Shown: positions 7,304-64,000 of the stretch, one piece after another
Position numbering within the stretch: position 1 is the first letter of the stretch
Layout of the letters: each line of letters begins with the position of its first letter
Assembly (NCBI GenBank): GCA_044892525.1
Contig: CM097885.1
Location: 28,026,001 to 28,090,000, forward strand
From: Schmidtea polychroa
Taxonomy: Eukaryota
Direction: 5' to 3'
Length of the DNA stretch: 64,000 nt
The notes under the pieces: generated by a model
Databases searched by the model: none
Told to the model about the DNA's origin: nothing
Seen by the model: only the letters and a program-made list of their open reading frames with translations
Position numbers and translations under genes: made by a program

Positions 7304-8053
7304 ATGGTCAGATATTCAGGTACTTCATTTCTAAGAACGAATTCAATTCTGAAATTCGATCTGAAACCCATCGAAATCTCGGATGAAATAATTGAGGATT
7401 TATTCGTTAGATTTCTATCCGATGTCAAGTCTTGTAAAACCAGCATGTCAGCGATTTTCTGGAGATTAGAGAAGATGTATTGGTATTATGTCGATTCAAA
7501 CAAATTGAAAGAAAAACAATCATCGCAACATTTTAAGAGATTTGTCATTGGCATTCGATACTATTTACAGGAAATTCTCCCACTCAACATTGACATTGTC
7601 AATGAATATAACAAATGGAATTATAATCGCAGATTTATACCTCGAGCTAAAGCAATTATTGTTGACGAAAATATGGAAAACGTTTTGCTTACGAAATGTC
7701 ACTATAATGACTATTATATTTTCCCCGGTGGGAAAGTAGAAGAAACCGATACGCATTTATTGGACACAGTAATCCGAGAAATCTACGAAGAAGTTGGAAT
7801 AGACCTTTCTAATGTTGTAGATGAAGATTTATATTTTGATCATGTTCAATACAGTTTACTCAGTAGATACTATGTGATTCGCAATTTCAGAAAAGACACA
7901 TTTTTACAGCCATTAGTGGACAATGAGATTCAAGTGATAAAATGGTTCCCAATAAAGGATATTCCCGATAATATGGAGCAATATAACATTTCATTAGAAA
8001 ATATCAAACTTGTTGTTAATCCTCTGAAATATATGTCAAAATATTTGAATTAA
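7304..8053 (+). CDS. Dcp2-like mRNA decapping Nudix hydrolase (short, intronless)
   Basis: Box A-like IIEDLFVRFL...IFWRLEKMYWYYVD, Nudix box FPGGKVEETDTHLLDTVIREIYEEVGID and NEIQVIKWF; first ATG at 7304 gives 249 aa. Confidence 0.85.
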   Translation: MVRYSGTSFLRTNSILKFDLKPIEISDEIIEDLFVRFLSDVKSCKTSMSAIFWRLEKMYWYYVDSNKLKEKQSSQHFKRFVIGIRYYLQEILPLNIDIVNEYNKWNYNRRFIPRAKAIIVDENMENVLLTKCHYNDYYIFPGGKVEETDTHLLDTVIREIYEEVGIDLSNVVDEDLYFDHVQYSLLSRYYVIRNFRKDTFLQPLVDNEIQVIKWFPIKDIPDNMEQYNISLENIKLVVNPLKYMSKYLN

Positions 8054-18235: not shown

Positions 18236-19216
18236 TTAAATTGTTGATGTATTCGTAGAATTTTCTTTATCTTCTATTTTTTGAGAAAACTTTATCATTA
18301 TAAACTTAGGCATCCAAACTTGTAGATATTTATTTCTAAAACTTTTCATTAGAACAATATAAACATACGGATTAATGACACTGTTTAACGCAGTAAGAAC
18401 TACTCCTGCAATACCTAGTGGTGAGCTAATTACGTACGAAGTCACTCCTAAAAATCCAAGAATGTAATATAGTGTATCATAAGCGAAACTTAAAATAAAA
18501 AACACTGTAATTACAAATGTTGATAAAGTAAACATTTTTGTTGCCTTTTGATAGCTATCAGCCTTTTTTATGGATTTTCCAACCATCATTTTTCTCAGAA
18601 AGAAATACACTCGACTATATAAATAGATGAAGAAACACGTTGGAATGACATATCCAACCATTGACCAAAGTATTGCGTACCCTTTCCAAAAGTTCTTCAT
18701 TATATCTCCATCGAATTGTGGTATTTGAATGCATGAACCATTCGGTAAAAGTCTAGATTGAAGTGTAGATGGAATTATTATTATCGAGGGAGCCAAGAAT
18801 AACACAAGGTAAGTTGTAATAATTTTCAATCGAATATTTTTTTTATAAGTTTGAGCAGTAACAACCGCCCAATATCGGTCAAAAGCCGTAAAAACTAAAT
18901 TTATGATACTCATGTGAACACTGAACCAATATATCGTCTGACTGTAAAATACTCTGCATCCAATCCAATCTATGAAATAAACTCCTGTGACATTTGGAGG
19001 TACCAAGGTTAGGAGAAATGAGATCAAGCACACATTGAAATCGATCAGTGATTGATTTCTCAACAAAAGAGTTGTGTATCTCGATTCAACGGATTTCAAA
19101 AATACCGTTACCGTAAAAGTCAAATTTCCCACCATCCCAATTACCACCAAAACAGCGAGAAAGACGTTAAAGTTTTTCAATTCAAGAACCGATAAAGGAT
19201 CATTGCTTCCTCCCAT
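18236..19216 (-). CDS. Rhodopsin-family (class A) GPCR, intronless
   Basis: Seven hydrophobic segments with TM1 GN, TM2 LID, AFDRYWAV and NSVINPYVY; first ATG at 19216. Confidence 0.9.
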   Translation of the reverse strand: MGGSNDPLSVLELKNFNVFLAVLVVIGMVGNLTFTVTVFLKSVESRYTTLLLRNQSLIDFNVCLISFLLTLVPPNVTGVYFIDWIGCRVFYSQTIYWFSVHMSIINLVFTAFDRYWAVVTAQTYKKNIRLKIITTYLVLFLAPSIIIIPSTLQSRLLPNGSCIQIPQFDGDIMKNFWKGYAILWSMVGYVIPTCFFIYLYSRVYFFLRKMMVGKSIKKADSYQKATKMFTLSTFVITVFFILSFAYDTLYYILGFLGVTSYVISSPLGIAGVVLTALNSVINPYVYIVLMKSFRNKYLQVWMPKFIMIKFSQKIEDKENSTNTSTI

Positions 19217-24608: not shown

Positions 24609-25350
24609 CCCTTAGTAGCCTGATTTACGAAAGTGATTTTTTTAATATTATTGTGTTTGCTTGAGGGTCTAAATGAAGGGAAAAATAGCTAAAAAAATCA
24701 CAATATTTATTTTACATATTTATTTAGAAAAAAAACAGGTATCAATTTTGATACTTCAGGCTTTAAGGCCATAAAGAAATCAGAAATACCTATGCATGAA
24801 ATAATGCTAAACATTGATTGTTTTTATTATCGCATAACGACACTTTACACTTTTTACAGAACCAGGAGGTAAGTTTCCTACAGTTATTAAATTTACACTT
24901 ATTTCTAGAATCCATAAAATTTTTTCATGACCAATACAATCGCAACGCACGTCAGTAGAGGGTAATACTTGTACACCTGTCCGGGGTCTTTTAGAAGGTA
25001 CTGTAGTGTCTTGTCGACTGTTGGTACTGGGTCTTCCCCTTTTATTTTTTGAGTGACTTTGATATCTACATAAAGTATCGGCAAGCTCAGTTCTAAAATC
25101 TGCTAACTTCATAATGTTCTTCTGAAGTTTTCCTTTCACTGTGTTTACCTTTTTGTATAGTACCCAAGCATTGATGACAGTCATGTTTAACAAATGGTAG
25201 AAGAGCCTCGTTGTCCACTTTCTCGACTTTATGCGGATGTGATATCGACCAATGAAGCTATCCATCAAATCAACACCGCCCATGTGTGTATTATATTCTT
25301 TTATGACCCGAGGACATCATACTTGAACATTGGCCTTTAATTTCTTTTCT
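24609..25350 (-). mobile_element. piggyBac 3' remnant
   Basis: TTAA|CCCTT terminus at 24605-24613; CPRVIKEYNTHMGGVDLMD...KWTTRLFYHLL...INAWVLY...FRTELA. Confidence 0.85.
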
Positions 25351-25463
25351 TTGCCACTTAACCAAAACCGTCTTCGTCTTCCGGGTTCGTCCAAATCTTC
25401 TCCATTACAACAAGAAGATTTAATATTAAATTTAATGTCTGGTAATGAAGGATTAGGACCCAT
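25317..25463 (-). CDS. Small element ORF, truncated and running into the piggyBac frame
   Basis: MGPNPSLPDIKFNIKSSCCNGEDLDEPGRRRRFW...; ATG lies 3 nt after the pX-like stop. Confidence 0.35.
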   Translation of the reverse strand: MGPNPSLPDIKFNIKSSCCNGEDLDEPGRRRRFWLSGKEKKLKANVQV

Positions 25464-25466
25464 TTT

Positions 25467-25960
25467 TTATGATCGTCTTCCTATTATTCCACCTAATAAT
25501 GATATTGCTAAAGGTATCAATGTACCGATAAATCCCCCTTGTTGTTTATTATAATTTTTCTCATTTGTTGACGAATTTTATTATTTACTAATGATGGCAA
25601 AGGTTTCCTATGTTTACTCAATAATTGATTTTTGGATTTACTGATTTTTATCTTGCCTTTGACTACTTTAAGTATAATATCGAGTAAATCATCGACAACA
25701 TAATTTGGAAATGATTGCAAAACACTGTTTCTTTTCATACTTGGTGCCTTTAACAATGTATTAAAAAACGGGAAACTCCGATGATTTTTAACAACTTTTA
25801 CTTTCTTAGTGGTTTTACTTTTAGGTTTAGGTTTAGGATTTTTCGAAATAAGATTCATTGCAGGAAACCTTTCTGTAATAAGTTCTTTAGATGGAGCATA
25901 ACTAGTTGTTGGTGGAACTTTTGATTGTTTTTTATTTGATATCCTTGTTTTTGAAAACAT
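25467..25960 (-). pseudogene. Basic pX/core-like virion protein with GG|F motif (frameshifted)
   Basis: Lys-rich ORF 25517-25960; one frameshift near 25550 continues it as NKQQGGFIGTLIPLAISLLGGIIGRRS*, an adenain-type cleavage motif plus hydrophobic helix. Confidence 0.6.
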
Positions 25961-26013
25961 GTTTTATATGTTTTCAACTTTATTTTGAACTTTTTTTATA
26001 AACCGTGGCACCT

Positions 26014-26613
26014 TTATGGGTTGAAAATATCTGTTTTTACTCGTAAGTCATGAGGACATTGTTGTGTGAAATCAAGAAATATATACCCATGCGGTATTTT
26101 CGTAGCATTTTGAAATGCATTGATAAGAAAATTACGATTATTAGGGTATGCTTGTCGTCCAAGACAATCAATGACAGTTGCATCTCTAGGAATCTTGAAA
26201 ATAACTAAATATTGTACATTTAAATTACGTGTTCGATGTGCACTACCTTGATGAAATAGATTTTGTGTTATGAAAATAACTGTTACACCAACATCTCTGC
26301 TGATTTTTGTGAATAAATTATTAAAATCTTTTTCTTTATTGGCTTCTTGATACAAATCATCGATAATGATGACATCATCTTTCTTCAAACGACTTGACCA
26401 GTTTTTATCAAATCCCTTTACTATTTTCATGTTTTTCAACTGACAGAAACTTGATTGCGTCAATCCATATTCTTCGTCGGCGCCCCTATGCCAATAAATA
26501 TTGTTGAATTTTGTTTTGAACAAATTTGATTTTAGTAATTTACAAACAAATAATGTTTTTCCGCTACCCCTTGGACCAACGATTTGGTATACTGCATCAT
26601 TTCGTAATTCCAT
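26014..26613 (-). CDS. A32/FtsK-like DNA packaging ATPase of Polinton type
   Basis: Walker A GPRGSGKT, Walker B IIIDDL, then LFTKISR, IFITQNLF, RTRNLNVQY, FKIPRD and GYIFLD. Confidence 0.9.
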   Translation of the reverse strand: MELRNDAVYQIVGPRGSGKTLFVCKLLKSNLFKTKFNNIYWHRGADEEYGLTQSSFCQLKNMKIVKGFDKNWSSRLKKDDVIIIDDLYQEANKEKDFNNLFTKISRDVGVTVIFITQNLFHQGSAHRTRNLNVQYLVIFKIPRDATVIDCLGRQAYPNNRNFLINAFQNATKIPHGYIFLDFTQQCPHDLRVKTDIFNP

Positions 26614-26677
26614 TTTTTAAATTTAAACTATATAATTATTGTTTATATTGATAATTTAAATGAAATCCGTTTTAAAA

Positions 26678-26811
<134 letters not shown>

Positions 26812-26823
26812 TGTTTCATTAAA

Positions 26824-27288
26824 ATGCTTTCAACTATAAATTACAGGGCAAAAGCTGATGTATCAAAAATGGTATTTCTAATGGGGTAACCACAAAAACC
26901 TATCAATAGAAGTAAAAAATATCCAATAATATATTTCAAAACTGGTAAATGTAGAATTATGGGGTGTAAGGAAATAATCAAAGCTAGTGAATATAATGTT
27001 TATGATTTAGAAATACAATCGATAACCGTAACTTCCGATATGGGATTTACTTGTTACTTAAATAAATTGGCTAAATTAATACCATGCTTTAACCAACCAG
27101 AATTATGTCCAGCTTTGAGATATATAAAATATAACCCTGTGTGTGTAAATATATTCGCTAGCGGTAAAATAGTAAATCTTGGACTAAAAAATATTGATTA
27201 CGAATGTATAGTTGATAATATCATATCTGAAATTAAATCAATAATTGAAGGAAAAGAATTTTTAGATTTTTTATTATCACTTAATTAA
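26824..27288 (+). pseudogene. Compact TATA-binding-protein-like gene of the element (one in-frame stop)
   Basis: ATG 26824 in frame with ORF 26959; TAA at 26887-26889; TBP repeat motifs IYFKTGKCRIMGCK and QPELCPALRY...VNIFASGKIVNLG. Confidence 0.8.
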
Positions 27289-27535
27289 TTATTTATCATT
27301 GCAAATTCAGTGCAATTGAAATGCATAATTCTGATTGGTCGAAATCTAATTGGCTGATGATTATTTATAACAAAATGTTTTGGGTTTAGTTATCATTTTT
27401 AAATCACGTACAATATTCAAAGTTCAGCTATAGCACCGATTAAAAAGAACATGAACATTATGGTAAATTTTAATATTAATTGTATTTATCATATTATTAT
27501 TTACAGATTAATATCATGCAATAATACTGGAAAGA

Positions 27536-27811
27536 TTGTATTTTTATTACCCGCAAATGTATGATATTCTCAAAGATCGAGATGTTGCAATAATCCCAGA
27601 TTTAATTTACAATGAAACCAGAATCTGGATTTTCAATATTATCAATACATTTCTCTGGGATGTGAAGATTGGAAGAACAATGAAGGAAGTGGAAGCATAC
27701 CCTTGCATTTTGGGATGTAGCTGTTGCAATTTCCGCTACCAGAGATATGTCGAATGGTATTTCGTAAAGACACTTCGTAATTATCATTTTTGTCAAATTT
27801 TATCCAAATAA
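27536..27811 (+). pseudogene. Unknown small element gene (Cys cluster), probably spliced and disrupted
   Basis: Upstream ATTGG boxes (27334, 27349), TATA-like 27364, candidate GT-AG intron 27463-27506; ORF contains CILGCSCC. Confidence 0.35.
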
Positions 27812-27868
27812 ATTTTTAACTATTTTTAGTTTTGTCTTTTTTAGTAAATAGTAATAGAAATATAAATA

Positions 27869-27984
<116 letters not shown>

Positions 27985-28157
27985 TAGTTTGAAAATAATA
28001 AAAACATTAATAATAATATGACACAAATAACATATGACAATGCAACATCAATGGATTTTGAATGCAATTAAAACAAAGACATACTGCAATTTGATTGGTT
28101 TATAAACAATAGTCATAGGTATAAAAACCCTGTATCATTACAATTCAATCATAAGTC

Positions 28158-28518
28158 ATGATGACCAAGAAAATATCAAGCACTGAAAAACCAAAGGTTG
28201 TTGTTGCTGAATTTGTACAACTGTTCAAATGTTCCACAACTATAAAATGCATTTTTTAAAGAAGAAATCAATATGAAATTGGTGTCACCGATCAAGCTAA
28301 TTCTGACTAAATTTCAATTCTTATCCGGCACACTTTCAATGATAGATGTTAAATCTATTGATGATGTTTTCAAACGGTTGAATACGAATCTATCATGTAA
28401 TCAACATGCACGGTTCAACAACCGATATGCAAGATATTATGATTCCTTTGATGAAATCGGCTTCAAAGAAAACGAAAATTGGTATATAACCATTTCAATC
28501 CAAGGATATAAAGTTTAA
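28158..28518 (+). pseudogene. Unknown small element gene, frameshifted
   Basis: ATTGG 28094, TATAAAAA 28120, ATG 28158, ORF 28273-28518 and downstream AATAAA. Confidence 0.3.
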
Positions 28519-28945
28519 AATAATGATGTGTATTTCTAAAATTATGTTTGCTAGACTTTCACACCTATTTTAATAAATGTTGATATATTTAATGTATTTA
28601 TTAATTGTATTTACTCGTATTTGTTTTTTCACCTATTTAACAATGAAAATGCACCATCAGTTCAAAACAAAGACATTTTTAAACAAATATACATTATAGT
28701 TTTAAAGTTTTATAGTTAGGAAGTTGAAGAAACCAATGATAGTCAAGAAACTGATGACCCCCAAGAAATTGATAAACCTATATTAATGAAGCTAAAGATT
28801 TGGAAAATATTACAAATGATTGTATAGATCATGTCATCGAAAATGTTATGAAATGTGGAGATGACGATTGCGAATGTGGTAATTAATAAATTTTAGTTAA
28901 TTATTTCTTGTAAATTTATTTTAAAAATAAAACAAAGTAAGTACA

Positions 28946-29441
28946 TTAATTTTTATTCAAAAATCGACAAATGATATACAAGATAGCAACACCTGTTGGA
29001 AGTTTAATATAGTTTTTAAACTTTATTTTGTGCTCGTCGATTTCTTTGGCATTTCGGGCGAGTTGATTCGATACTCCCCATCCGCCATTGGCATAGATCC
29101 AATGAATATTATTAAAATATAGATTATAAAATAAATGACTTCTTGAGACCACTGGTAGTAATGTTCTGAGTCCCATAAAATTTTTTGATGATAATTTTCA
29201 TATAAGTGAATCCTACAATTATTCGGGTCCACTTCATTTCTTCGTTGAATAGGCAATTGAAGATTCGAATTAAATAAAACTTCTTTGTTTCAAGGCATTC
29301 CATATCCATCATGTTCTGGTAGTCGATATGGTTGCCTTTAATAATTCGTTCAGTCCGATTGATTAGGAAACTGAGGCTTTCCGTAATGTTTTTGTTGACG
29401 ATCTATTTTAGTAAGTTGTCAATGAAATTAGGTTTTGACAT
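28946..29441 (-). pseudogene. Bcl-2-family-like gene of the element
   Basis: BH1-like LFNEEMKWTRIIVGFTY, BH2-like HWIYANGGW, hydrophobic tail GVAILYIICRFLNKN; one TAG (29403-29405) and a 1-nt frameshift near 29130; upstream TATA (29471-29477) and CCAAT (29506-29510). Confidence 0.65.
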
Positions 29442-29782
29442 TTTTACAGTAATTTAAAATATAAAGTTTTATTTATACTACAGAATTGTGTGCCATATGA
29501 TTCTGATTGGTTGATAGACTATATGAGTTTTGTTACAATATTTCTATTGATACCCTTGTGATCAGTACCCTTGCGAGCAGTACCCTTAAGGGGACAGAAT
29601 ATCTTGTCGGATAAACTCAGAGTATCACCGTGCGCGTAATAGTAGTTATATGGTTTATATCGATGGTACAATAATTTGGGAATTCAAATTTAAAATTTTT
29701 TAAATATTTGACCTCAGATTGACCTTAAAATTTGACCTAAAAACAGCCCCTCCCCGGGGGTATGATGTAATATGTTTTCGTT

Positions 29783-35094: not shown

Positions 35095-35573
35095 GCTCTG
35101 GCGAAGATGTAACTGTTTAAAGAATTTTGTTTAAATAATCAGTTGAACTTGCATGTTTCAATGTAAGATTTAAAAAGTAAAAGAATTGATTTAATAAGCT
35201 TTATTATCTAGTTCTTTCAAAATAAAATAACAGTTAGTAAAATGAAACATAGTTAAATTTTTAGACAATCAATTAAACATTAAAATTTTATAAATAGAAT
35301 AATTTTAATATATAATAAACTAATTAAGAATATGTTGTATTGAATGACTGTTGAATATTGAAGATCAATTAATCATATATATATATATATATCAGAAAGT
35401 ATTTCAGAAACGACAAGACTGACAGGAAAAAAATACACATAAATAATGTTATTTTTCCTACAACACATTTATGGAAAATACGCGTAGAAGAAGCGATTCA
35501 AATTAGTTAAAGTGAGATAGAGCTAATTAAGAAAGTAAATTTGTAAAATGAAAAATATTATTTACCATTAGAT

Positions 35574-51178
<15,605 letters not shown>

Positions 51179-53974: not shown

Positions 53975-54539
53975 CTTTAAAGCGTGATTTAAAAAATATC
54001 AGGAGTAGAAAAGATTTGAGAAAATTAAATCGAAAGAAAAAGTTGTATGCGAAATTATGATATTTCATAGTGAATTGATGGAAGTTTCGATTATATACAA
54101 TATGATTTAGTTATTTGTTATATAGAAACTCACTATTTCAATTTATCACATTGCTTGGAGGTGTCTCTGTTATTTATTGAACCAAGGGGAGCTGTATACT
54201 AAAAATCAATTTTGTCAAATTTACACCCAACAAAAAATAAGAAAAACAATAAAATTATTACAATGGTATACACGTTTTTTTGTCGTTGATCTTGCATTCG
54301 TTTTACTTGATTGGGTCTATTTTCTAAGAAAATTATGTCGAACCGTAAAATGTGAAAATTTGTGAAATCGGTTAATTTTTATATTAATAAATCTTCAATA
54401 TATGTCAACAAGTAATTTTTGATACTTTTTTGTCAAGTATCAGAGTAGTGAATAGTAAGGACTCCAACTCACTTTCAAGGTCATGGAATATCAAGATCAA
54501 ATATAGACCAATCGAATCATTTATTTTTTAAATTAACAT

Positions 54540-54900
54540 TTTATTTAATTACTTCTTTTTAATTTTATTAATTAATTATTTTATGATGTTATATTTTAAT
54601 TACTTACTTTAGTTAATTTTTAATTTATTACATTTAATTAATTTATTAGTTTATTAATATTTTATTTTAATTACTTACGCTTTTTAATTATTATTATTAT
54701 TATTATTATTTTTAATTTTATTTAATTACTTCTATTTTTTTTTCTCTTTAATTTTATTAGTTAATTATTTTATGATGTTATACTTTAATTACTTATTTTA
54801 GTTAATTTTTAATTTATTACATTTAATTAATTAATTTGTTTATTAATACTTTATTTTAATTGCCAACGTTATTTAATTATTATTTATTTATTTTTTAATT
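54540..54900. repeat. AT-rich tandem duplication (two units of about 180 bp) downstream of pPolB
   Basis: TTTTATGATGTTATA...TAGTTAATTTTTAATTTATTACATTTAATTAATT occurs twice. Confidence 0.7.
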
Positions 54901-55215
54901 TTACATTATATTCTAACAAGAGCGTAAATTATAACAATAATATTTCAATTTGAATAAAATTTTAATTAGTAATTATTCAATTTGAATAAAATTTTAATTG
55001 GTAATTATCATAAAATAAAGCTGTGTTAATTTAAATAAAATGGGCATTAATTTTTCAAAACAAAGCAAAGTTTTTCATGATAAATAATAATTCTTACTTA
55101 AAACTAATTATCTAAATTAATTGGACAAATGAATTATTAAATGATAAAACATATTTTAATTAACGAAGTCAAATAATTCACAATATATATTTTATTATTC
55201 ACATAAATTTAATTG

Positions 55216-58108
55216 TTAAAGTTCTTGTTTCGATTTGCATTCATTTGTAGACGGAGCAGTTGCGATATGCATTTGACGAATCTTATAGTGACCGTAGGCA
55301 TAGCTTTCATTAGAATTGAACCAATACCTTTTTTCATCCAAACATTGGAGAGCTCGTTTTTCAGTAATGAAAGTATACAACTGATGATTAACACTTCCTA
55401 TTCTCTTTTGTTGGATGCTCACTGTTCCACCATCAGTATACACTTTTTTATAGGCTTCATGGGTGATATTAGAATTTGTAAGACTTATTCCTTTGGCTTT
55501 TAGAGTGTTTTTATCTCCTTGGAGTGAGTAGCACTTGGGTCGAAGAAACACCCATTCTTTATATTGATTTCCTTTATTCTCATCCTTGAATTTCCCGATT
55601 ACCGAACAAATTTTATCTGAGAACAATGGATCAGTCACCGGATAATTTGAAGTATCTAGGAGCCCATCGGCAATCATTTTTGGATACAGTTGTAAGCGTA
55701 AATCAACATTTTTACACTCTAAAAAGAAGGAATCTGTGTCACCGGCTACGATATTAATTTGACAATTGAATTCTTCTCTATAACTCTGTAGTTCTTTATA
55801 TTGAAACTGGTACATGCGAAGTTTAGATAAATCAAGTACGGTTTGTCCAATATACATTGGTCTATCTAAACACACCATTTCCTTATCAAGTATAACAGCA
55901 ATGAGATCATCCGCAATCTTGATGCTACGACGAAACATAGGATTACTACAATAAGTTATCAATCTTTTGCTTTTGCTGCATAATCTCAAATTTATACGTT
56001 TCTTAAGGTTTTCCACGGTTTTACCATATAAACTGTTGTTCTTTAACTTATAATAATCTCGCTGAAATGAATCTGTACTAGCTGCTCTCATTTGAGTATT
56101 GTAATCAATATAGCGTTTGAAAATAGCTACTTGCTTGAATTCTACAGCACGATTAACTTTTGTGACTTTTGCGCCGTAACTCAACCACTCTGTCAAAACT
56201 CTACCATTAACTACATAGTTTTTCTTAGGCTCATGAGTTAACAACAGCTTTTCAACTTTACTACCAGGTGGATAACAAAGCTCAGGAGCTATAGGTAAAT
56301 CATCTAGCTTATCTTGTATACTATCAGGAATGACGATGTCAACCTCTAGAACATATCCACGATCTCCATCAAACTCATCCCCATTTGCACATCTTTCAAC
56401 AATACCATTCATTTCAGTATGATCATTTATCCATCTAAATTCACCAATAGGAAGTTTTTGCGACAGCGCCCATCCATATAAATTATTAACATCTAGGTAT
56501 GACATTTGTGTTGATTCATCAGCTTCAACATGATGTTTGTTGATAAATGTCATTCCACCACGAATACCAGCTTCAAATAAACGGTAAAGCTCTGGATCTT
56601 GAATAAGTTCTACCGGTTCAGGTAACTGTTTAATAGCTGATGCCCAACTTAATCCGGGTATGGAAACAAACGATAAAGCCTCAAGTCCATCTTCGTCAAA
56701 TGTTTTTTCTCTGAAAGCTTCAAAAACATCGGCCAACACAAAAACATCCAACTTGAGATATACTAGCATGTAATCTAGCAGTGTCTCACAGTTATATTGT
56801 CGCCAGATTTGATTTGCATGTATATAATCTTCTTGACTAACTCCCTCCCAAATCGATGGTAATTCTGTTATTGACTGTAAAACATCCATTGACGTAGCAA
56901 TATCATAAGGAAATATGCCTTTACCAGTTATTAGATGCGAATTGAAAATCTTTGAAGTAAGTGGAAGACGTGGCAAGTTTTTTGATAAATTTGCCAAGCT
57001 GCTATTTAAAAATTGTAAAGAATCAATGAATCTAATTCTTCTGCCTTTCGATGTCGCTGTAAGTGTGAGAAACTTTTCTGTTGATTGAGGAATAACAATT
57101 AAATTCCAATCTGGGAATTTTCCAATTGCATATTTTAATATATGATGAATGTCATATCCACGAAGATTATGAAATACAACAGGTAAAGACGGATTGATTC
57201 TTCTAGCCAAATTACAATCTTGACACGCTGCTCCGAGATATTGACCAGTAAAATGATCATGATCTCGAACGGGTATATTGATAATCTTTTTACAAAGGTA
57301 GCAATGAGTTTGAGTCGTGAATTCTTCCTGCTCTTCCCAAGTGAGTTCCATCATTTCCTTTGATCCATTAATTTTATACCACGGATAAACTATGTCTGTA
57401 GCTATATCATCCAATGCTTGTATGAACTGAATGATACAGTTTTTCCCAACAAATGTTTCATTTCGGATCGGACAACCTTGATGGAGAAGCACAAATTCAG
57501 ATGCAATCGGCTCATGTTTTTGGAAGTGTTTGTCATCTAGAGGTAATATCGATTCAAAGTCCGCGTAGACAACAAACTGCTGTTTTATAGTTTTACTCCA
57601 ATCTTTAAATTCGATATATTTATTCTCTGGCATTGAGTATAGAGTCGTACGCTCCACATTCTTCCTACAAAGACCTATATGTCTTTCAAAAGCAGGACGT
57701 TTTTGAAACCCATGAAGACACGTATGACACCAATGTGATTGGATTCTGACTCCTTCTACTCTATCTCTGTAATTCAGCAGTCGATCGAGATTAGTTACAG
57801 CCAAAAAATGATAATTTAATTCTAAATTTAGTTAATATTTTTAATGATTAAAGGAAATATTACCTTCTTCAATCAATAGGAGATATATCTGAGATCCCGT
57901 CGAAGTACTTCTATATACCAAGTCAATGAACGGATTCTTGAAAATATCATTAGTTTTTTGTTTAATTGGATCTTTATTATATTTGAGAACATTGATCGCT
58001 AGATTTGGATTAATTGCTTCAAATTGGCAAATGTTAACCAACTTCATCGGAAACCATTCAAATTTCCATTTTAAGTCTTAAAAACAAAATTCAATGATTT
58101 ATGACATT

Positions 58109-58193
<85 letters not shown>

Positions 58194-59265
58194 CCACTTA
58201 AGTTATATTTTGTTGTTCTTTCTCTATTCCGACGTATATCATCATAACGTAACACAGCTAGTATGCTATATAAAAAACAGAATTGATCATTGTTTTGAAC
58301 ATTAACTAAAGCCTGACAGTTTTTCAGGTAATTTGGCGTTTTAATGTAACTTGAACCTAAGTAATCTCTTGATTTATATATATATAATAATGTAAATAAT
58401 CTTACCAGATACATGTATTATGTCTGATAATTTAGTTAAAATCATAGTAACTTCTAATATTTTATGAATTCTCCACCCACTACTTTGTTGAGTGTATTTC
58501 TCCAACTTTTCTTTTAATTTTTCAATTCCATCATTAATAAATGAAGATGACATTGTAATTGCTTTATTCGACAAACACCATTTTTTAATTTCACCATCCT
58601 CTTTGATAAACTCTGCACAAAGTCCAAATTGGATTTTTACTGTCCCCATTCGTTGAATATGATCTTCTATTTCTTTGATGAGACAATCTGGAACAACAAT
58701 GTCAGGAGAATTAATTGCAGATACATCGCTTGTCAATTCAACACGAGAACCGTTTAAGTCAGACTCCCGACGTGGACACAATTGTATGTTAGAGTCTCCA
58801 TTTCCGTAAAATATTGACTTTCGTTTTGTGGTGCCAGAGTTTTGTCTAACTATATTTATAATTAATATTAAACAACTTAAATAACATAACTTGTAACATA
58901 TTCTTTAATCTCCTTAGGATCGTATGATGTATTCATTTTCGATTGTACTATAAAAAATTAATAATTGTTAATAGTAGAAAGAGTATTACTTTTAGTGATC
59001 ATCCTGCTCTTCGTTTCTTCGAATCTTCTAAGATGGTGTCCGTGTTGTCGTACAAACATTAACCACCTACCTGGTGTTATAATGAGACATTCCGGACATA
59101 TGTAACCCGATAAGGTAGAGTCATTTATCTTGAAATATGATGATGTAACTGATTTACAGTTCTCCACATCTTCATGACTTTCGGCAATACAAAATTTATA
59201 TAAACTGCATCCGTTCACTAAAAAATAATCATTAATATTAGATAGAGAATAAAAATTTATTCACT
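55216..59265 (-). CDS. Protein-primed DNA polymerase B (Polinton/Maverick type) with endonuclease VII-like insert; about 1236 aa after splicing
   Basis: YADFES, FHNLRGYD, KGIFPY, YLKLDV, YLDVNNLYG, KLKNNSLYGKT, GDTDS, GKFKDE, KAKGI; CxxC..DHDH..G..CxxCN; N-terminal SSGW and GSSY..NNDQFCF motifs. Predicted introns 59218-59264, 58948-58989, 58850-58890, 58357-58405, 58077-58194, 57822-57863. Confidence 0.92.
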
Positions 59266-60426
59266 TATATAAGTTAAATTAAAAGTTTAAATGACAAACA
59301 TTTGAAAAGTTACTGCTTATATATTACACATGATTAAATTCTGACCAATCAAAATCAAGGAAGGGGTAGGAAAAATAAATATATTCTGACCAATCAAAAT
59401 CAAGGAAGGGGTAGGAAAAATAAATGCATTACATTGCAGTATTTTAAAACTTAAATTTTAAAACACATTTTGACGCTAAAGTTGACTTATTTAACATTTT
59501 CATAATAATTTAATAAAAATAATGTGTTGAACTCACAAAGTAATATCATTTTTTTTCATCAAATTGCAAAACAGTAATAACGTTTTCATAAAATTGTAAC
59601 AAAGTAATAACATATTTCAGATAAATTTTCAACAGTTGTAAAATATTTATCAAATTGTAACTAAAATAATAAAAATATTGCAACAAAGTAATAAAATAAT
59701 GATGTTAATTGGGACAAATCAATACATTATTTCGAAGACGGACAACAAATTAAAAAAGAATATTGTAATAAATTGTGAAGTCTTTCAGTAAATTACAACA
59801 AAGTAATAACATATTTCGGAAATATTTCACCAGATGTAAAATATTTAAGCAAATTGTTATAAGATTATAAAAATATTGCAACAAAGTAATAAAATAATAC
59901 AACATTTTAAACTCTAGATCAATCCATTTTATAGAAAATTAAATTTTATCTCTATAATATATGAATAAATATACAAGGAAATTACGTTAACGTATAATAA
60001 AACATGTGTGTATTACACACAAAACAAGATACATAATTTCTAATCAATCCATTTTATAGAAAATTAAATTTTATCTATATATTATATGAATAAAATCCTA
60101 AGAAAATTACGTTAACCGCGCGAAAAATACAAATTTATCGTAAAAACATGTGTGTATTACACACAACATACGAGACATAATTTTTAATCAAGCTATTTTA
60201 TAGAAAATTAAATTTTATCTATATATTAAATGAATAAAAATCCAAGAAAATTACGTTAACCGCGCGAAAAAATACAAATTTATTGTAAAAACATGTGTGC
60301 ATTACACACAAAGCACCAAACTGAAATTGTAATTGCGCCGTGTTGTAGAGAATTAAATTCTGCCTATACATGGTTACACTTAAATCTCGATCAGACCTGT
60401 GAAAAGAGACATAAAAGATAAAAAAC
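58397..60426. repeat. Left arm of a large inverted duplication (extent limited by window end)
   Basis: Reverse complement of 61972-64000; mirrored coordinates sum to 122397/122398. Confidence 0.95.
59317..59425 (-). promoter_or_regulatory. Pol II-type promoter of pPolB
   Basis: TATATAA at 59317-59323 (minus); CCAAT at 59345 and 59390 inside a 45-bp tandem duplication; mirrored at about 62972-63080. Confidence 0.6.
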
Positions 60427-60720
60427 AGTAGAGTAGTATGATGTGGGCCCGCCCGGCCAGGAGCCCGCTCGGCCACATATACCCCCTCCCCCCGTGTGTA
60501 AAATAATGTTAATAATAATATTTATATATCAGTAGATAGATCTCGCACTGGGCCTTAAAATGAGCTATAGATCAATAAAATCTGTTGGTGGGAACATTAA
60601 GTTTTGAGCAAACGAAAACCAGGAGCCCGCCAGACCACTTAATAATATTTTTTGAAAATAATAATGATTTATGAGTCATCGTATGAGTCATCGAATGAGT
60701 CATCGTTCTAAAAATACATG

Positions 60721-60777
<57 letters not shown>

Positions 60778-60981
60778 TTCTTGGGAGTTGTAATAATAAT
60801 TCTTTGAAAATATCTTAGTCATTATTAATAATACTAATAATACCCTAGCGAGTTGTTGATTGTGAGTAGTACCCTTGTGTGCAGTACCCATGTGACTTGT
60901 TGAGTGTGAGCAGTACCTTTGTGAGCAATACCCATAGGGGGACAGAATATCTTGTCGGATAAACTCGGAGTATATAATAAT

Positions 60982-61041
<60 letters not shown>

Positions 61042-61971
61042 CAACGATTTAAACAAATTAAATTAATATGTAATCGATAATTAAAACAAAGATTATTAGT
61101 TCTAAAATTATTAGGCATCATTCTAAAAATATGACGTAATCATTCTAAAAATATGTGGCATCGTTCTAAAAATATGTGGCATCGTTCTAAAAATATGAGT
61201 CATCGTTCTAAAAATATTAGGCATCGTTCTAAAAATATGATGTAATCATTCTAAAAATATTAGGCATCATTCTAAAAATAATAGACATCGTTCTAAAATT
61301 ATGATGTAATCGTTCTAAAAATAATAGACATCGTTCTAAAAATATTTGGCATCATTCTAAAATATTAGAAAACATTCTAAAAATGTGATGAGTCATTGTC
61401 TTTGTTCTAAAAATGTGATGAGTCATCGTATGATAAAAATCTATATCTCATTAGAAAGTTCTTGCACAGAGCTTTAAAATAAGCTATCGATCAATATAAT
61501 ATGTTGGCGGGAACAATAATTTTTGGGATGAAAAAAAGTAGGTCCCCGCTGGATCACTTAATAATATTTTGAAAAATAATAATAATTTAACGTTGAAAAG
61601 ATGGTGGTCATCAATTGTTAATAACATTAAAACTATTAAAGATATATATGATACCTATAGCTCATTCGAAAGGTCTTGGACTGAGCTTTAAGATGAGGTA
61701 TCGGTTAATAAAATTTGTTGGCGGGAACATTACTTTTGGGAAGAAAAAAAGTAGGTCCCCGCTGGATCACTTAATTTAAAAAAAATTACGTAATAGTTCT
61801 AAAAATATTAGGCATCGTTCTAAAAATATTAGGCATTGATTACGTAATAGTTCTAAAAATATTAGGCATCGTTCTAAAAAAAAATAAAATTTTTTCCCGG
61901 GGGGGGGGGGAGGGGGTATATGTGATCTGGAGGGGACATGGCCGGGGGAGCCCACATCCTACTACTCTACT
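60427..61971. mobile_element. 1545-bp non-coding cassette with Polinton-type AGTAG termini at the palindrome centre
   Basis: Begins AGTAGAGTAGTA, ends TACTACTCTACT; ~65-bp imperfect GC-rich TIRs; shares a 36-bp block (35/36) with 29590-29625. Confidence 0.75.
61096..61420. repeat. About 15 tandem copies of a ~21-bp unit CATC(G/A)TTCTAAAAATATnnnn
   Basis: Seen directly; further copies at about 60701 and 61796-61880. Confidence 0.9.
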
Positions 61972-64000
61972 GTTTTTTATCTTTTATGTTTCTTTTCACA
62001 GGTCTGATCGAGATTTAAGTGTAACCATGTATAGGCAGAATTTAATTCTCTACAACACGGCGCAATTACAATTTCAGTTTGGTGCTTTGTGTGTAATGCA
62101 CACATGTTTTTACAATAAATTTGTATTTTTTCGCGCGGTTACGTAATTTTCTTGGATTTTTATTCATTTAATATATAGATAAAATTTAATTTTCTATAAA
62201 ATAGCTTGATTAAAAATTATGTCTCGTATGTTGTGTGTAATACACACATGTTTTTACGATAAATTTGTATTTTTCGCGCGGTTAACGTAATTTTCTTAGG
62301 ATTTTATTCATATAATATATAGATAAAATTTAATTTTCTATAAAATGGATTGATTAGAAATTATGTATCTTGTTTTGTGTGTAATACACACATGTTTTAT
62401 TATACGTTAACGTAATTTCCTTGTATATTTATTCATATATTATAGAGATAAAATTTAATTTTCTATAAAATGGATTGATCTAGAGTTTAAAATGTTGTAT
62501 TATTTTATTACTTTGTTGCAATATTTTTATAATCTTATAACAATTTGCTTAAATATTTTACATCTGGTGAAATATTTCCGAAATATGTTATTACTTTGTT
62601 GTAATTTACTGAAAGACTTCACAATTTATTACAATATTCTTTTTTAATTTGTTGTCCGTCTTCGAAATAATGTATTGATTTGTCCCAATTAACATCATTA
62701 TTTTATTACTTTGTTGCAATATTTTTATTATTTTAGTTACAATTTGATAAATATTTTACAACTGTTGAAAATTTATCTGAAATATGTTATTACTTTGTTA
62801 CAATTTTATGAAAACGTTATTACTGTTTTGCAATTTGATGAAAAAAAATGATATTACTTTGTGAGTTCAACACATTATTTTTATTAAATTATTATGAAAA
62901 TGTTAAATAAGTCAACTTTAGCGTCAAAATGTGTTTTAAAATTTAAGTTTTAAAATACTGCAATGTAATGCATTTATTTTTCCTACCCCTTCCTTGATTT
63001 TGATTGGTCAGAATATATTTATTTTTCCTACCCCTTCCTTGATTTTGATTGGTCAGAATTTAATCATGTGTAATATATAAGCAGTAACTTTTCAAATGTT
63101 TGTCATTTAAACTTTTAATTTAACTTATATAAGTGAATAAATTTTTATTCTCTATCTAATATTAATGATTATTTTTTAGTGAACGGATGCAGTTTATATA
63201 AATTTTGTATTGCCGAAAGTCATGAAGATGTGGAGAACTGTAAATCAGTTACATCATCATATTTCAAGATAAATGACTCTACCTTATCGGGTTACATATG
63301 TCCGGAATGTCTCATTATAACACCAGGTAGGTGGTTAATGTTTGTACGACAACACGGACACCATCTTAGAAGATTCGAAGAAACGAAGAGCAGGATGATC
63401 ACTAAAAGTAATACTCTTTCTACTATTAACAATTATTAATTTTTTATAGTACAATCGAAAATGAATACATCATACGATCCTAAGGAGATTAAAGAATATG
63501 TTACAAGTTATGTTATTTAAGTTGTTTAATATTAATTATAAATATAGTTAGACAAAACTCTGGCACCACAAAACGAAAGTCAATATTTTACGGAAATGGA
63601 GACTCTAACATACAATTGTGTCCACGTCGGGAGTCTGACTTAAACGGTTCTCGTGTTGAATTGACAAGCGATGTATCTGCAATTAATTCTCCTGACATTG
63701 TTGTTCCAGATTGTCTCATCAAAGAAATAGAAGATCATATTCAACGAATGGGGACAGTAAAAATCCAATTTGGACTTTGTGCAGAGTTTATCAAAGAGGA
63801 TGGTGAAATTAAAAAATGGTGTTTGTCGAATAAAGCAATTACAATGTCATCTTCATTTATTAATGATGGAATTGAAAAATTAAAAGAAAAGTTGGAGAAA
63901 TACACTCAACAAAGTAGTGGGTGGAGAATTCATAAAATATTAGAAGTTACTATGATTTTAACTAAATTATCAGACATAATACATGTATCTGGTAAGATTA
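61972..64000. repeat. Right arm of the large inverted duplication (runs off the window)
   Basis: Mirror of 58397-60426; ORFs 58958-59218 and 63179-63439 encode identical peptides. Confidence 0.95.
63132..64000 (+). CDS. Second copy of the pPolB gene, 5' exons (truncated by window end)
   Basis: Predicted introns 63133-63179, 63408-63449 and 63507-63547 join MNGCSLYKFC...ITK-IQSK...YVT-IRQNSG...DIIHVSG. Confidence 0.85.

Follow-up and report, generated by a model that had tools for sequence, protein, structure and literature searches.

A 64,000-nucleotide stretch of the Schmidtea polychroa genome (contig CM097885.1, positions 28,026,001 to 28,090,000 of the forward strand; hereafter the window) ends in two mirrored polymerase-gene sequences set head to head around a short cassette with Polinton-like ends. 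This locus raises the question of whether such an arrangement is an artefact, a single accident or the product of a mobile family. Polintons are known almost only in silico, and a sequence-only reading of the window had offered three origins for the structure: a captured replication or template-switch product, a rearrangement between sister chromatids, or an invertible cassette shared by two divergent genomes. The present analyses revealed that the mirrored genes are parts of a palindromic element of 13,458 bp, which is near certainly a member of a real mobile family and is predicted from its sequence to be a non-autonomous Polinton derivative that retains a working polymerase.

Structure of the palindromic element

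Neighbouring stretches of the assembly (G000; 781 Mb, 1,012 contigs) were added to the window, and coordinates above 64000 are given in this extended numbering, in which 67901 corresponds to G000:C1:28093901. The element extends from 54444 to 67901, about 3.9 kb past the window end, and has the termini AGTAGT...ACTACT, starting on the left with AGTAGTGAATAG and ending on the right with CTATTCACTACT. A direct 6-bp target site duplication (TSD), TATCAG, flanks the outer termini (54438-54443 / 67902-67907), so that both marks of a Polinton end, the motif (AG)3 or (AGT)2 and a 6-bp TSD, are present. The components of the element within the window are the following:

54438..54443 (+), left copy of the TSD TATCAG; the right copy is at extended 67902-67907
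54444..60431 (+), left arm of family "A", 5,988 bp, with outer end AGTAGTGAATAG; from the arm alignment and outer 22-mer matches
55216..57831 (-), main open frame of a protein-primed DNA polymerase from family B (pPolB), 871 aa stop to stop; PF03175, E=4.3e-32, with exonuclease and polymerase motifs
57685..59230 (-), upstream pPolB pieces (N-terminal part), found by tblastn with helper pPolB N-termini; boundaries approximate
59300..59454 (-), putative promoter-like stretch with a TATA-like box and two copies of a CCAAT-containing repeat of ~50 bp
59455..60431 (+), "hub", a non-coding module of ~1 kb with 125-145-bp tandem repeats, terminating in AACAGTAG; from family comparisons
60432..61966 (+), core, 1,535 bp, an internally deleted helper Polinton with two inward-reading ends; from collinearity with helper B
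61967..64000 (+), right arm with hub, promoter-like stretch and first pPolB pieces, running on to extended 67901 with a second pPolB

The two arms, of 5,988 and 5,935 bp, are outside the size range of Polinton terminal inverted repeats (TIRs; about 100-1,500 bp), and the mirror accounts for about 89% of the element. Alignment of 54444-60493 with 61905-67901 showed 98.9% identity over 6,050 columns; the inner parts pair at 100% over 1,860 nt (58397-60256 with 62141-64000) and at 95% next to the core (60257-60493 with 61905-62141). Outside repeats the arms are about 99.9% alike, and they differ by two substitutions (60408/61990 and 55356/66989), one 1-nt indel and 52 bp in the length of a (TA)n tract. 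The near-perfect inverted arms that the sequence-only reading had described (58397-60426 and 61972-64000) were present, together with the substitution 60408/61990 and the indel; its starting point at 58397 merely reflected the window edge, and its two differences were real, with the (TA)n length and the substitution 55356/66989 to be added. It had also described the cassette flanks as inverted (AAAAAC/GTTTTT) and as lacking a direct TSD. The inverted flanks of the core stand, while the direct TSD lies at the outer termini. Extension beyond 64000, proposed as a check, revealed that the mirror continues to 67901 and contains a second pPolB, whose main frame stops 46 codons early (825 aa compared to 871 aa in the left arm) owing to the substitution 55356/66989.

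Each 6-kb arm thus carries one pPolB gene, reading towards the outer end. Assignment to the protein-primed family B polymerases is based on the PF03175 match (E=4.3e-32) and on the located exonuclease and polymerase motifs; an endonuclease VII-like zinc module in the same frame (PF02945, E=2.7e-4) scores below the cut-off of that profile. The upstream pieces are separated by short GT-AG-like gaps, one with a (TA)n tract, which suggests splicing, and the stretch before them, with motifs that we take to be TATA-like and CCAAT boxes, is presumably a promoter. The ratio of nonsynonymous to synonymous substitution rates (dN/dS) of the window pPolB-A was 0.128-0.163 in five of six comparisons with older subfamilies and 0.286 in the sixth; a value of 0.65 was obtained between two close old A copies with few changes. 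The pPolB-A gene is under purifying selection. The window pPolB is 55% identical to that of a complete Polinton of the same genome (helper B). Related pPolB sequences were found in seven metagenome loci of 1.1-3.4 kb, too short to reveal their architecture, and in no viral contig searched; close protein relatives bear uninformative names, and no RNA data set was among the listed carriers of the sequence.

No integrase, capsid, ATPase or protease gene was found in the 13,458-bp element by tblastn with 41 open frames of the complete helpers B and D, which matched solely pPolB and short frames over the common terminal repeat. The element is not an autonomous Polinton: integrase and capsid genes are absent and the repeat length is outside the range. 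It combines Polinton ends and a TSD with the loss of core genes and the presence of complete helpers in the same genome, as in non-autonomous derivatives. Since TSDs are present and an own integrase is absent, mobilisation in trans by a helper integrase is suggested.

The family and its exchangeable modules

The outer 22-mer of the element had 281 exact matches in the assembly (140 forward and 141 reverse; control 0+0). Among the first 100 matches listed, 90 paired into 45 elements, the pairing leaving out 10 that were unpaired or more than 20 kb apart; 39 of the 45 paired A copies measured 11.7-14.0 kb (median 13.1 kb), which is about 80-90% of helper length, and none 15-16.5 kb. Fifteen of 16 full copies read had their own direct 6-bp TSD, the sixteenth having inverted flanks, and the youngest copies differed by 0-8 letters in 4,407 columns. 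The element family is young and has at least about 140 copies. As the family has its own TSDs, neither the capture of a single product nor a local rearrangement between sister chromatids is supported.

The same data bear on the possibility that the mirror is an artefact of assembly or fold-back, or that the chromosome was rearranged once, at this locus. Such an origin might be suspected from arms about 99.9% alike outside repeats, and contigs of four public runs from four studies cover arm and hub with no listed piece spanning the junction; in one contig of run X9 the match to the window ends at 60436 and a different end-like sequence follows, which is a weak hint only. The arm and hub sequence is nevertheless present in the runs of all four studies, 15 of 16 full copies have distinct 6-bp TSDs, the outer end occurs 281 times, the cores are subfamily-specific, and copy-specific (TA)n lengths differ between arms, which argues against full collapse of the arms in assembly. 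An artefact is refuted as an explanation of the whole family, and we give this origin practically no credence.

The near-identity of the arms was further examined in 14 of the 16 full A copies, one being dropped for a large insertion and one for a lost junction; columns within 10 positions of a gap were removed. In 4,407 gap-free columns, 41 copy-private variants were found in both arms and 26 in one arm. A single old duplication without recopying would leave almost no private variants common to both arms; the arms are re-homogenised within each element copy. The invertible cassette shared by two divergent genomes is thereby not supported, the arms being copies of one sequence, and for the same reason the orientation of the core is without meaning, apart from small patchwork exchanges between its inner ends.

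Inverted copies of neighbouring or host DNA were also found beside Polinton ends elsewhere, over 2.8 kb at C1:198.40 Mb (198398541-198416604), at least 3.9 kb at C1:73 kb (68400-95400) and 18 bp at C1:6.186 Mb (6185693-6187624). At the first of these loci an extra partial end restores the original 6-bp TSD. Such inverted flanks at three other loci indicate that read-through of this kind occurs in the genome.

The core is bounded by Polinton ends, as the sequence-only reading had proposed. From position 282 to 1535 it is collinear with an end of a complete B element on G000:C3 (88.5% over 1,257 columns), and the first 60 letters of its right end are identical to free ends elsewhere; the left-end variant of the window was absent among the 100 stand-alone ends listed, of 219. 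It carries a 21-bp repeat array and AAT tracts. The cassette, earlier delimited at 1545 bp, is reduced to a core proper of 1,535 bp (60432-61966), with its first AGTAG and last CTACT assigned to the arms because free helper ends and free ends of half copies (see below) start with a single AGTAG. Core length is 290-1,576 bp in 14 A copies and 185 bp in one half copy, and patchwork exchange between the two inner ends of a core was seen at L004, L007 and other loci. The flanks joined exactly at the core ends are inverted and not direct, which matches a panhandle-type duplication. A genome search for other arm-cassette junctions, also proposed earlier, yielded 443+455 matches to the junction pattern compared to 2+3 for the reversed control, and chance is thus excluded. 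Full-length core matches lay between hubs on both sides in 10 of 10 cases (best 40 of 5,901 candidates scored), and the core was accordingly rejected as a free miniature inverted-repeat transposable element. Among 100 junctions listed, the sequence following the invariant AACAGTAG was B-type in 72, D-type in 20, B2-type in 6 and other in 2, by our count, with a pattern that undercounts one side of D-type cores. One junction carrying core ends from three helper families points, on sequence, to swapping of cores.

The hub is the second module. Its 16-mer had 1,172 matches in the assembly, of which 1,028 (88%) were followed by the exact junction, and ~500-600 hub-bearing elements are estimated from these motifs. 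The hub of family A is 88% identical to that of family E and 77% to that of family F, and pPolB arms of at least three unrelated kinds (A, E and F) are attached to it. Palindromes of family E have an equal plan and size (four copies read, 13.3-13.5 kb, 6-bp TSD in 4/4); a family F palindrome of 13.7 kb has a TSD matching at 5/6 bases, and an F-like copy has a perfect one. Both differ from A in polymerase and outer ends. The A polymerase is 53-56% identical to all others, E is 55-63% identical to those of the helpers, and F is 91% identical to that of helper B, with which, and with B2, it clusters in a quick tree (support of 99 in the Shimodaira-Hasegawa-like approximate likelihood ratio test, SH-aLRT). 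These comparisons of sequence indicate that pPolB arms are exchanged on a common hub.

Complete helpers of 15.2-16.5 kb were found in the same genome. Helper B (G000:C3:26189348-26205564) encodes an integrase (PF00665), an ATPase (PF04665), a TBP-like gene, pPolB and putative capsid genes, the capsid label being a lead from the ESM Atlas (PF21738 on 15% of members of a 0.97 cluster). Helper D is at C1:23788724-23804501, and D-type stand-alone ends number 213+193. In both, pPolB adjoins one end and reads towards it, the layout also found in the arm. Between B and D, the integrase, ATPase and putative capsid genes have 93-97% DNA identity, the polymerases 66%, and the terminal repeats differ, so that polymerase and ends seem to move together as one module. 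Among nine elements with the GGGCCATCC end variant, six carry pPolB and the four other helper genes tested, two are gene-less palindromes and one is a helper copy without pPolB; a bipartite system, with polymerase-only palindromes complementing polymerase-less helpers, was rejected on the six helpers that carry pPolB. Two candidate capsid-gene parents with A-type ends, a 17.4-kb copy at C1:73292 and the copy at C1:180867384, were nested insertions, and no A-type parent was found among 12 odd-sized or unpaired A loci.

Copies of the B family (L165-L188), whose genes are 97-99% alike, vary in a patchwork manner over the initial ~60 bp and the repeat arrays of their terminal repeats. B2-type elements are inserted beside an AGTAG/CTACT-like motif within a pPolB gene (G000:C1:180872912) and at a hub junction (C1:5492090), two cases only, hinting at a target preference for end-like sequence.

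Other derivatives were observed as well. An A copy at C1:186269008 has lost the core and still has its TSD. Gene-less giant palindromes of 12.9-13.6 kb have arms of 5.9-6.6 kb, B-type ends and 6-bp TSDs; inner ends were present in neither of the two centres read. In "short-arm" forms of 6.7-7.6 kb, which have TSDs and an A-type end at either side, one arm is full and the other is reduced to 100-840 bp. Their positions are:

G000:C355:11569-25045; C1:17483146-17496790; C1:65410373-65423320; C1:90567626-90581016, gene-less palindromes, from ends and TSDs
G000:C1:247200771-247207436; C1:30787381-30795021; L193; L194, short-arm forms, from A-type ends and TSDs

Half copies and a proposed copying cycle

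From the listed part of the junction and hub matches, 31 loci with apparently unpaired hubs or junctions were fetched. Most were deletions, nested insertions or ordinary pairs, and five had a free far core end. In three of these five the order was free core end, core, hub, one pPolB arm and outer end, within a perfect 6-bp TSD (rough chance expectation 0.004-0.017 per locus):

G000:C1:53580037-53586290, half copy with pPolB-A and D-type core, 6,254 bp, TSD TACCTT
C1:60907454-60914981, F-like half copy with B2-type core, 7,528 bp, TSD TTGCAC
C1:49354967-49361371, half copy with pPolB-E and B-type core, 6,405 bp, TSD GATTAT

Half copies thus occur with each of the three polymerase families, and, because the three sit in perfect TSDs, inner ends can function as ends. 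All five free core ends start with a single AGTAG and not with the doubled AGTAGAGTAG. A half copy could also be imitated by loss of the DNA between the outer and inner AGTAG; in a rough model where deletion uses either pentamer, five single starts in five have a chance of about 0.03. The three inserted halves, which run in this order, bear out the earlier statement that either end of the cassette leads through it into one copy of the polymerase. The halves have an arm on one side only, and a pre-insertion hub parent was not found.

We consider it probable that the family is a helper-dependent satellite cycling between a half and a mirror form by panhandle or fold-back copying. A panhandle or "racket" replication intermediate was reportedly proposed in the first Polinton description. 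In the favoured cycle, the pPolB of the element would start at the outer end and displace a strand; in a half copy, the 3' end of this strand, which is the core end, would pair with the second core end inside the strand, and its extension over hub and arm would write the second arm. Self-pairing and extension would place the junction at the exact terminus, with inverted rather than direct flanks, and in this respect the structure fits the template-switch product suggested by the sequence-only reading. The helper integrase would insert either form, reading mainly the terminal AGTAG common to all families. The half form would have one own origin and one helper-type end, plus an internal second helper-type end; the doubled form would probably be favoured, as both its ends carry an origin of its own polymerase and its length is near that of the helper. 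A new core would be taken up through pairing of a helper strand end with the core end already in place; arms would be exchanged through recombination just upstream of pPolB, because helper pPolB likewise adjoins one end and reads towards it. A more extended proposal is tentative and somewhat doubtful: the hub may capture parts of several Polinton lineages, namely inner helper ends and an outer arm with polymerase and origin, and propagate through a half genome that rebuilds the second arm in each round to near-helper (capsid) length.

Several observations weigh against this account. Polishing of the assembly, or gene conversion once an element had inserted, could also produce the likeness of the arms. 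The half-to-full direction is our interpretation, and halves could be dead-end products; two of the five free core ends lack a direct TSD (one has none, one an 18-bp inverted flank). No complete helper with A-type ends was found among the 45 paired A copies on C1, and none with E-type ends, E copies not having been surveyed for helpers. No hub was found in those complete elements of types B, D and B2 that were tested, nor any parent in which the hub continues past AACAGTAG into other genes. An intermediate of arm, whole helper and arm was not found in nine loci (one a helper control). The best candidate for this form, a pair of hubs separated by 15 kb at C1:55.5 Mb, proved to be a nested insertion, and in two further extended loci the structure closes or stops no more than ~200 bp from the core end, or is rearranged. 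In addition, gene-less palindromes spread without inner ends.

A simpler explanation is a giant-TIR derivative formed by one or a few ancient fold-back accidents and now moving by its outer ends, with the core as passive filler that recombines with related helper ends and the halves as side products of an integrase cut at the inner end or of left-arm deletion between AGTAGs. The genome has many gene-less palindromes of about this size whose centres lack termini, so that a core with ends is unnecessary for the spread of a palindrome; the coreless A copy with its TSD and the many one-sided deletions also agree with this explanation, and a full-length single strand could fold back and homogenise the arms without any half form. 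It accounts less readily for the exact junction kept in 1,028 of 1,172 hub motifs across the cores of three helper families, for the single AGTAG, as in true ends, at all five free core ends, and for halves of three polymerase families. New pPolB arms were moreover repeatedly duplicated onto both sides, for which a step from one arm to two is needed. On balance we judge the giant-TIR explanation rather unlikely. Retention of the core for another function in cis, as a packaging signal for helper capsids or an enhancer of both pPolB promoters, with selection making the satellite track currently active helpers, is compatible with the half-mirror cycle, and as the explanation it seems improbable. 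The core lies upstream of both pPolB genes and has helper terminal-repeat arrays, including the 21-bp array and what we take to be TGACTCA, TGACGTCA and TCAAGGTCA motifs, and the length of 39 among the 45 paired A copies (11.7-14.0 kb, or about 80-90% of helper length at 15.2-16.5 kb) would suit packaging. Against it, cores of 290-1,576 bp in the 14 A copies and 185 bp in a half share little beyond their ends, and the helper capsid label is an ESM Atlas lead only.

Neighbouring features and relation to known systems

The remainder of the window contains host-type frames and fragments of other elements:

7304-8053 (+), Dcp2/NUDIX frame, host-type
18236-19216 (-), frame of a rhodopsin-family G protein-coupled receptor, host-type
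24807-25283 (-), piggyBac-like DDE fragment
26014-26613 (strand not stated), ATPase of a helper fragment, itself 83-95% identical to B
26959-27288 (strand not stated), TBP-like frame of the same fragment, PF00352
50929-51219 (-), kinase-like exon, host-type, read by eye

The helper fragment is B/D-like, spans 25350-29450 at 83-95% identity to B and also holds an integrase start. A 1.3-kb sequence between (TA)n tracts forms an inverted pair (window 35375-36705 and extended 86945-88221; 99.8% alike) ~19 kb either side of the palindrome, and is probably a separate young repeat.

The family supplies sequence-level handles on the replication mode of Polintons and on the packaging of animal Polintons, namely recopied arms, functional inner ends, forms of half length and a size range slightly below that of the helpers, and it suggests a way in which the exchanges of polymerase reported for nematode Polintons could come about. 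Hub-bearing elements also contribute long inverted repeats and inverted flank duplications to the genome in large number. If the hub does capture parts of several lineages, the genome would preserve Polinton replication intermediates, and helpers would exchange their polymerase and end modules by way of the satellites, as a common pool. In the literature covered, no description of polymerase-bearing palindromic Polintons, of a swappable core or of half forms was found, Repbase and most subscription papers being outside this scope, and a Repbase entry for the element may exist. The comparisons with published systems given here refer to passages of the cited papers; passages or reference lists of 10.1101/2024.01.15.575659, PMC3185507, PMC13027316 and PMC10175614 contain nothing further on this form.

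Polintons/Mavericks share with the element pPolB, (AGT)2-type ends, a 6-bp TSD and a size of 13-25 kb (10.1101/2023.08.22.554363; PMC8097293). Their terminal repeats are 100-1,500 bp long, and 46-1,447 bp in vertebrates (same sources), compared to repeats of 6 kb in the element, each with a polymerase gene; the element also has a second, inner pair of helper ends and lacks integrase, ATPase, protease and capsid genes. Exchange of polymerases between lineages (pPolB1/pPolB2) is described in nematode Polintons (10.1101/2023.08.22.554363). Teratorn of medaka likewise combines inner and outer ends, but is a fusion of piggyBac and a herpesvirus, 41-182 kb long, and has a transposase of its own (PMC6431247), whereas the inner ends of the element come from other elements and are swapped among helper families, and its unique region is a non-coding remnant.

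Linear mitochondrial plasmids resemble the element in protein priming, terminal repeats and long inverted flanks (PMC1864894). In integrated pAL2-1, kalilo and maranhar, long inverted flanks of neighbouring DNA are attributed to panhandle intermediates, and the product is a one-off lesion of mitochondrial DNA without an integrase (PMC1864894). The element, unlike these plasmids, forms a nuclear family that inserts with TSDs, and purifying selection acts on the polymerase encoded in its arms. The adenovirus vectors of Steinwaerder et al. (1999) are said to contain a cassette flanked by a duplicated left end. In rearranged adenovirus vectors a repeat-flanked cassette lies between inverted copies of one genome end, in a helper-dependent form; these vectors are, however, engineered, episomal and non-heritable, and are not known to exchange cores or polymerase arms. 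Repeat-mediated recombination occurs in displaced adenovirus strands (PMC4448996). The butterfly polintons have TIRs extended over whole genes, with two copies per insertion, as in the element; these gene-bearing TIRs are ~2 kb long, hexon and adenain being doubled in an otherwise multi-gene element (10.1101/2025.02.07.637071). The S. polychroa element, in contrast, keeps pPolB only, is a mirror over about 89% of its length and has inner ends.

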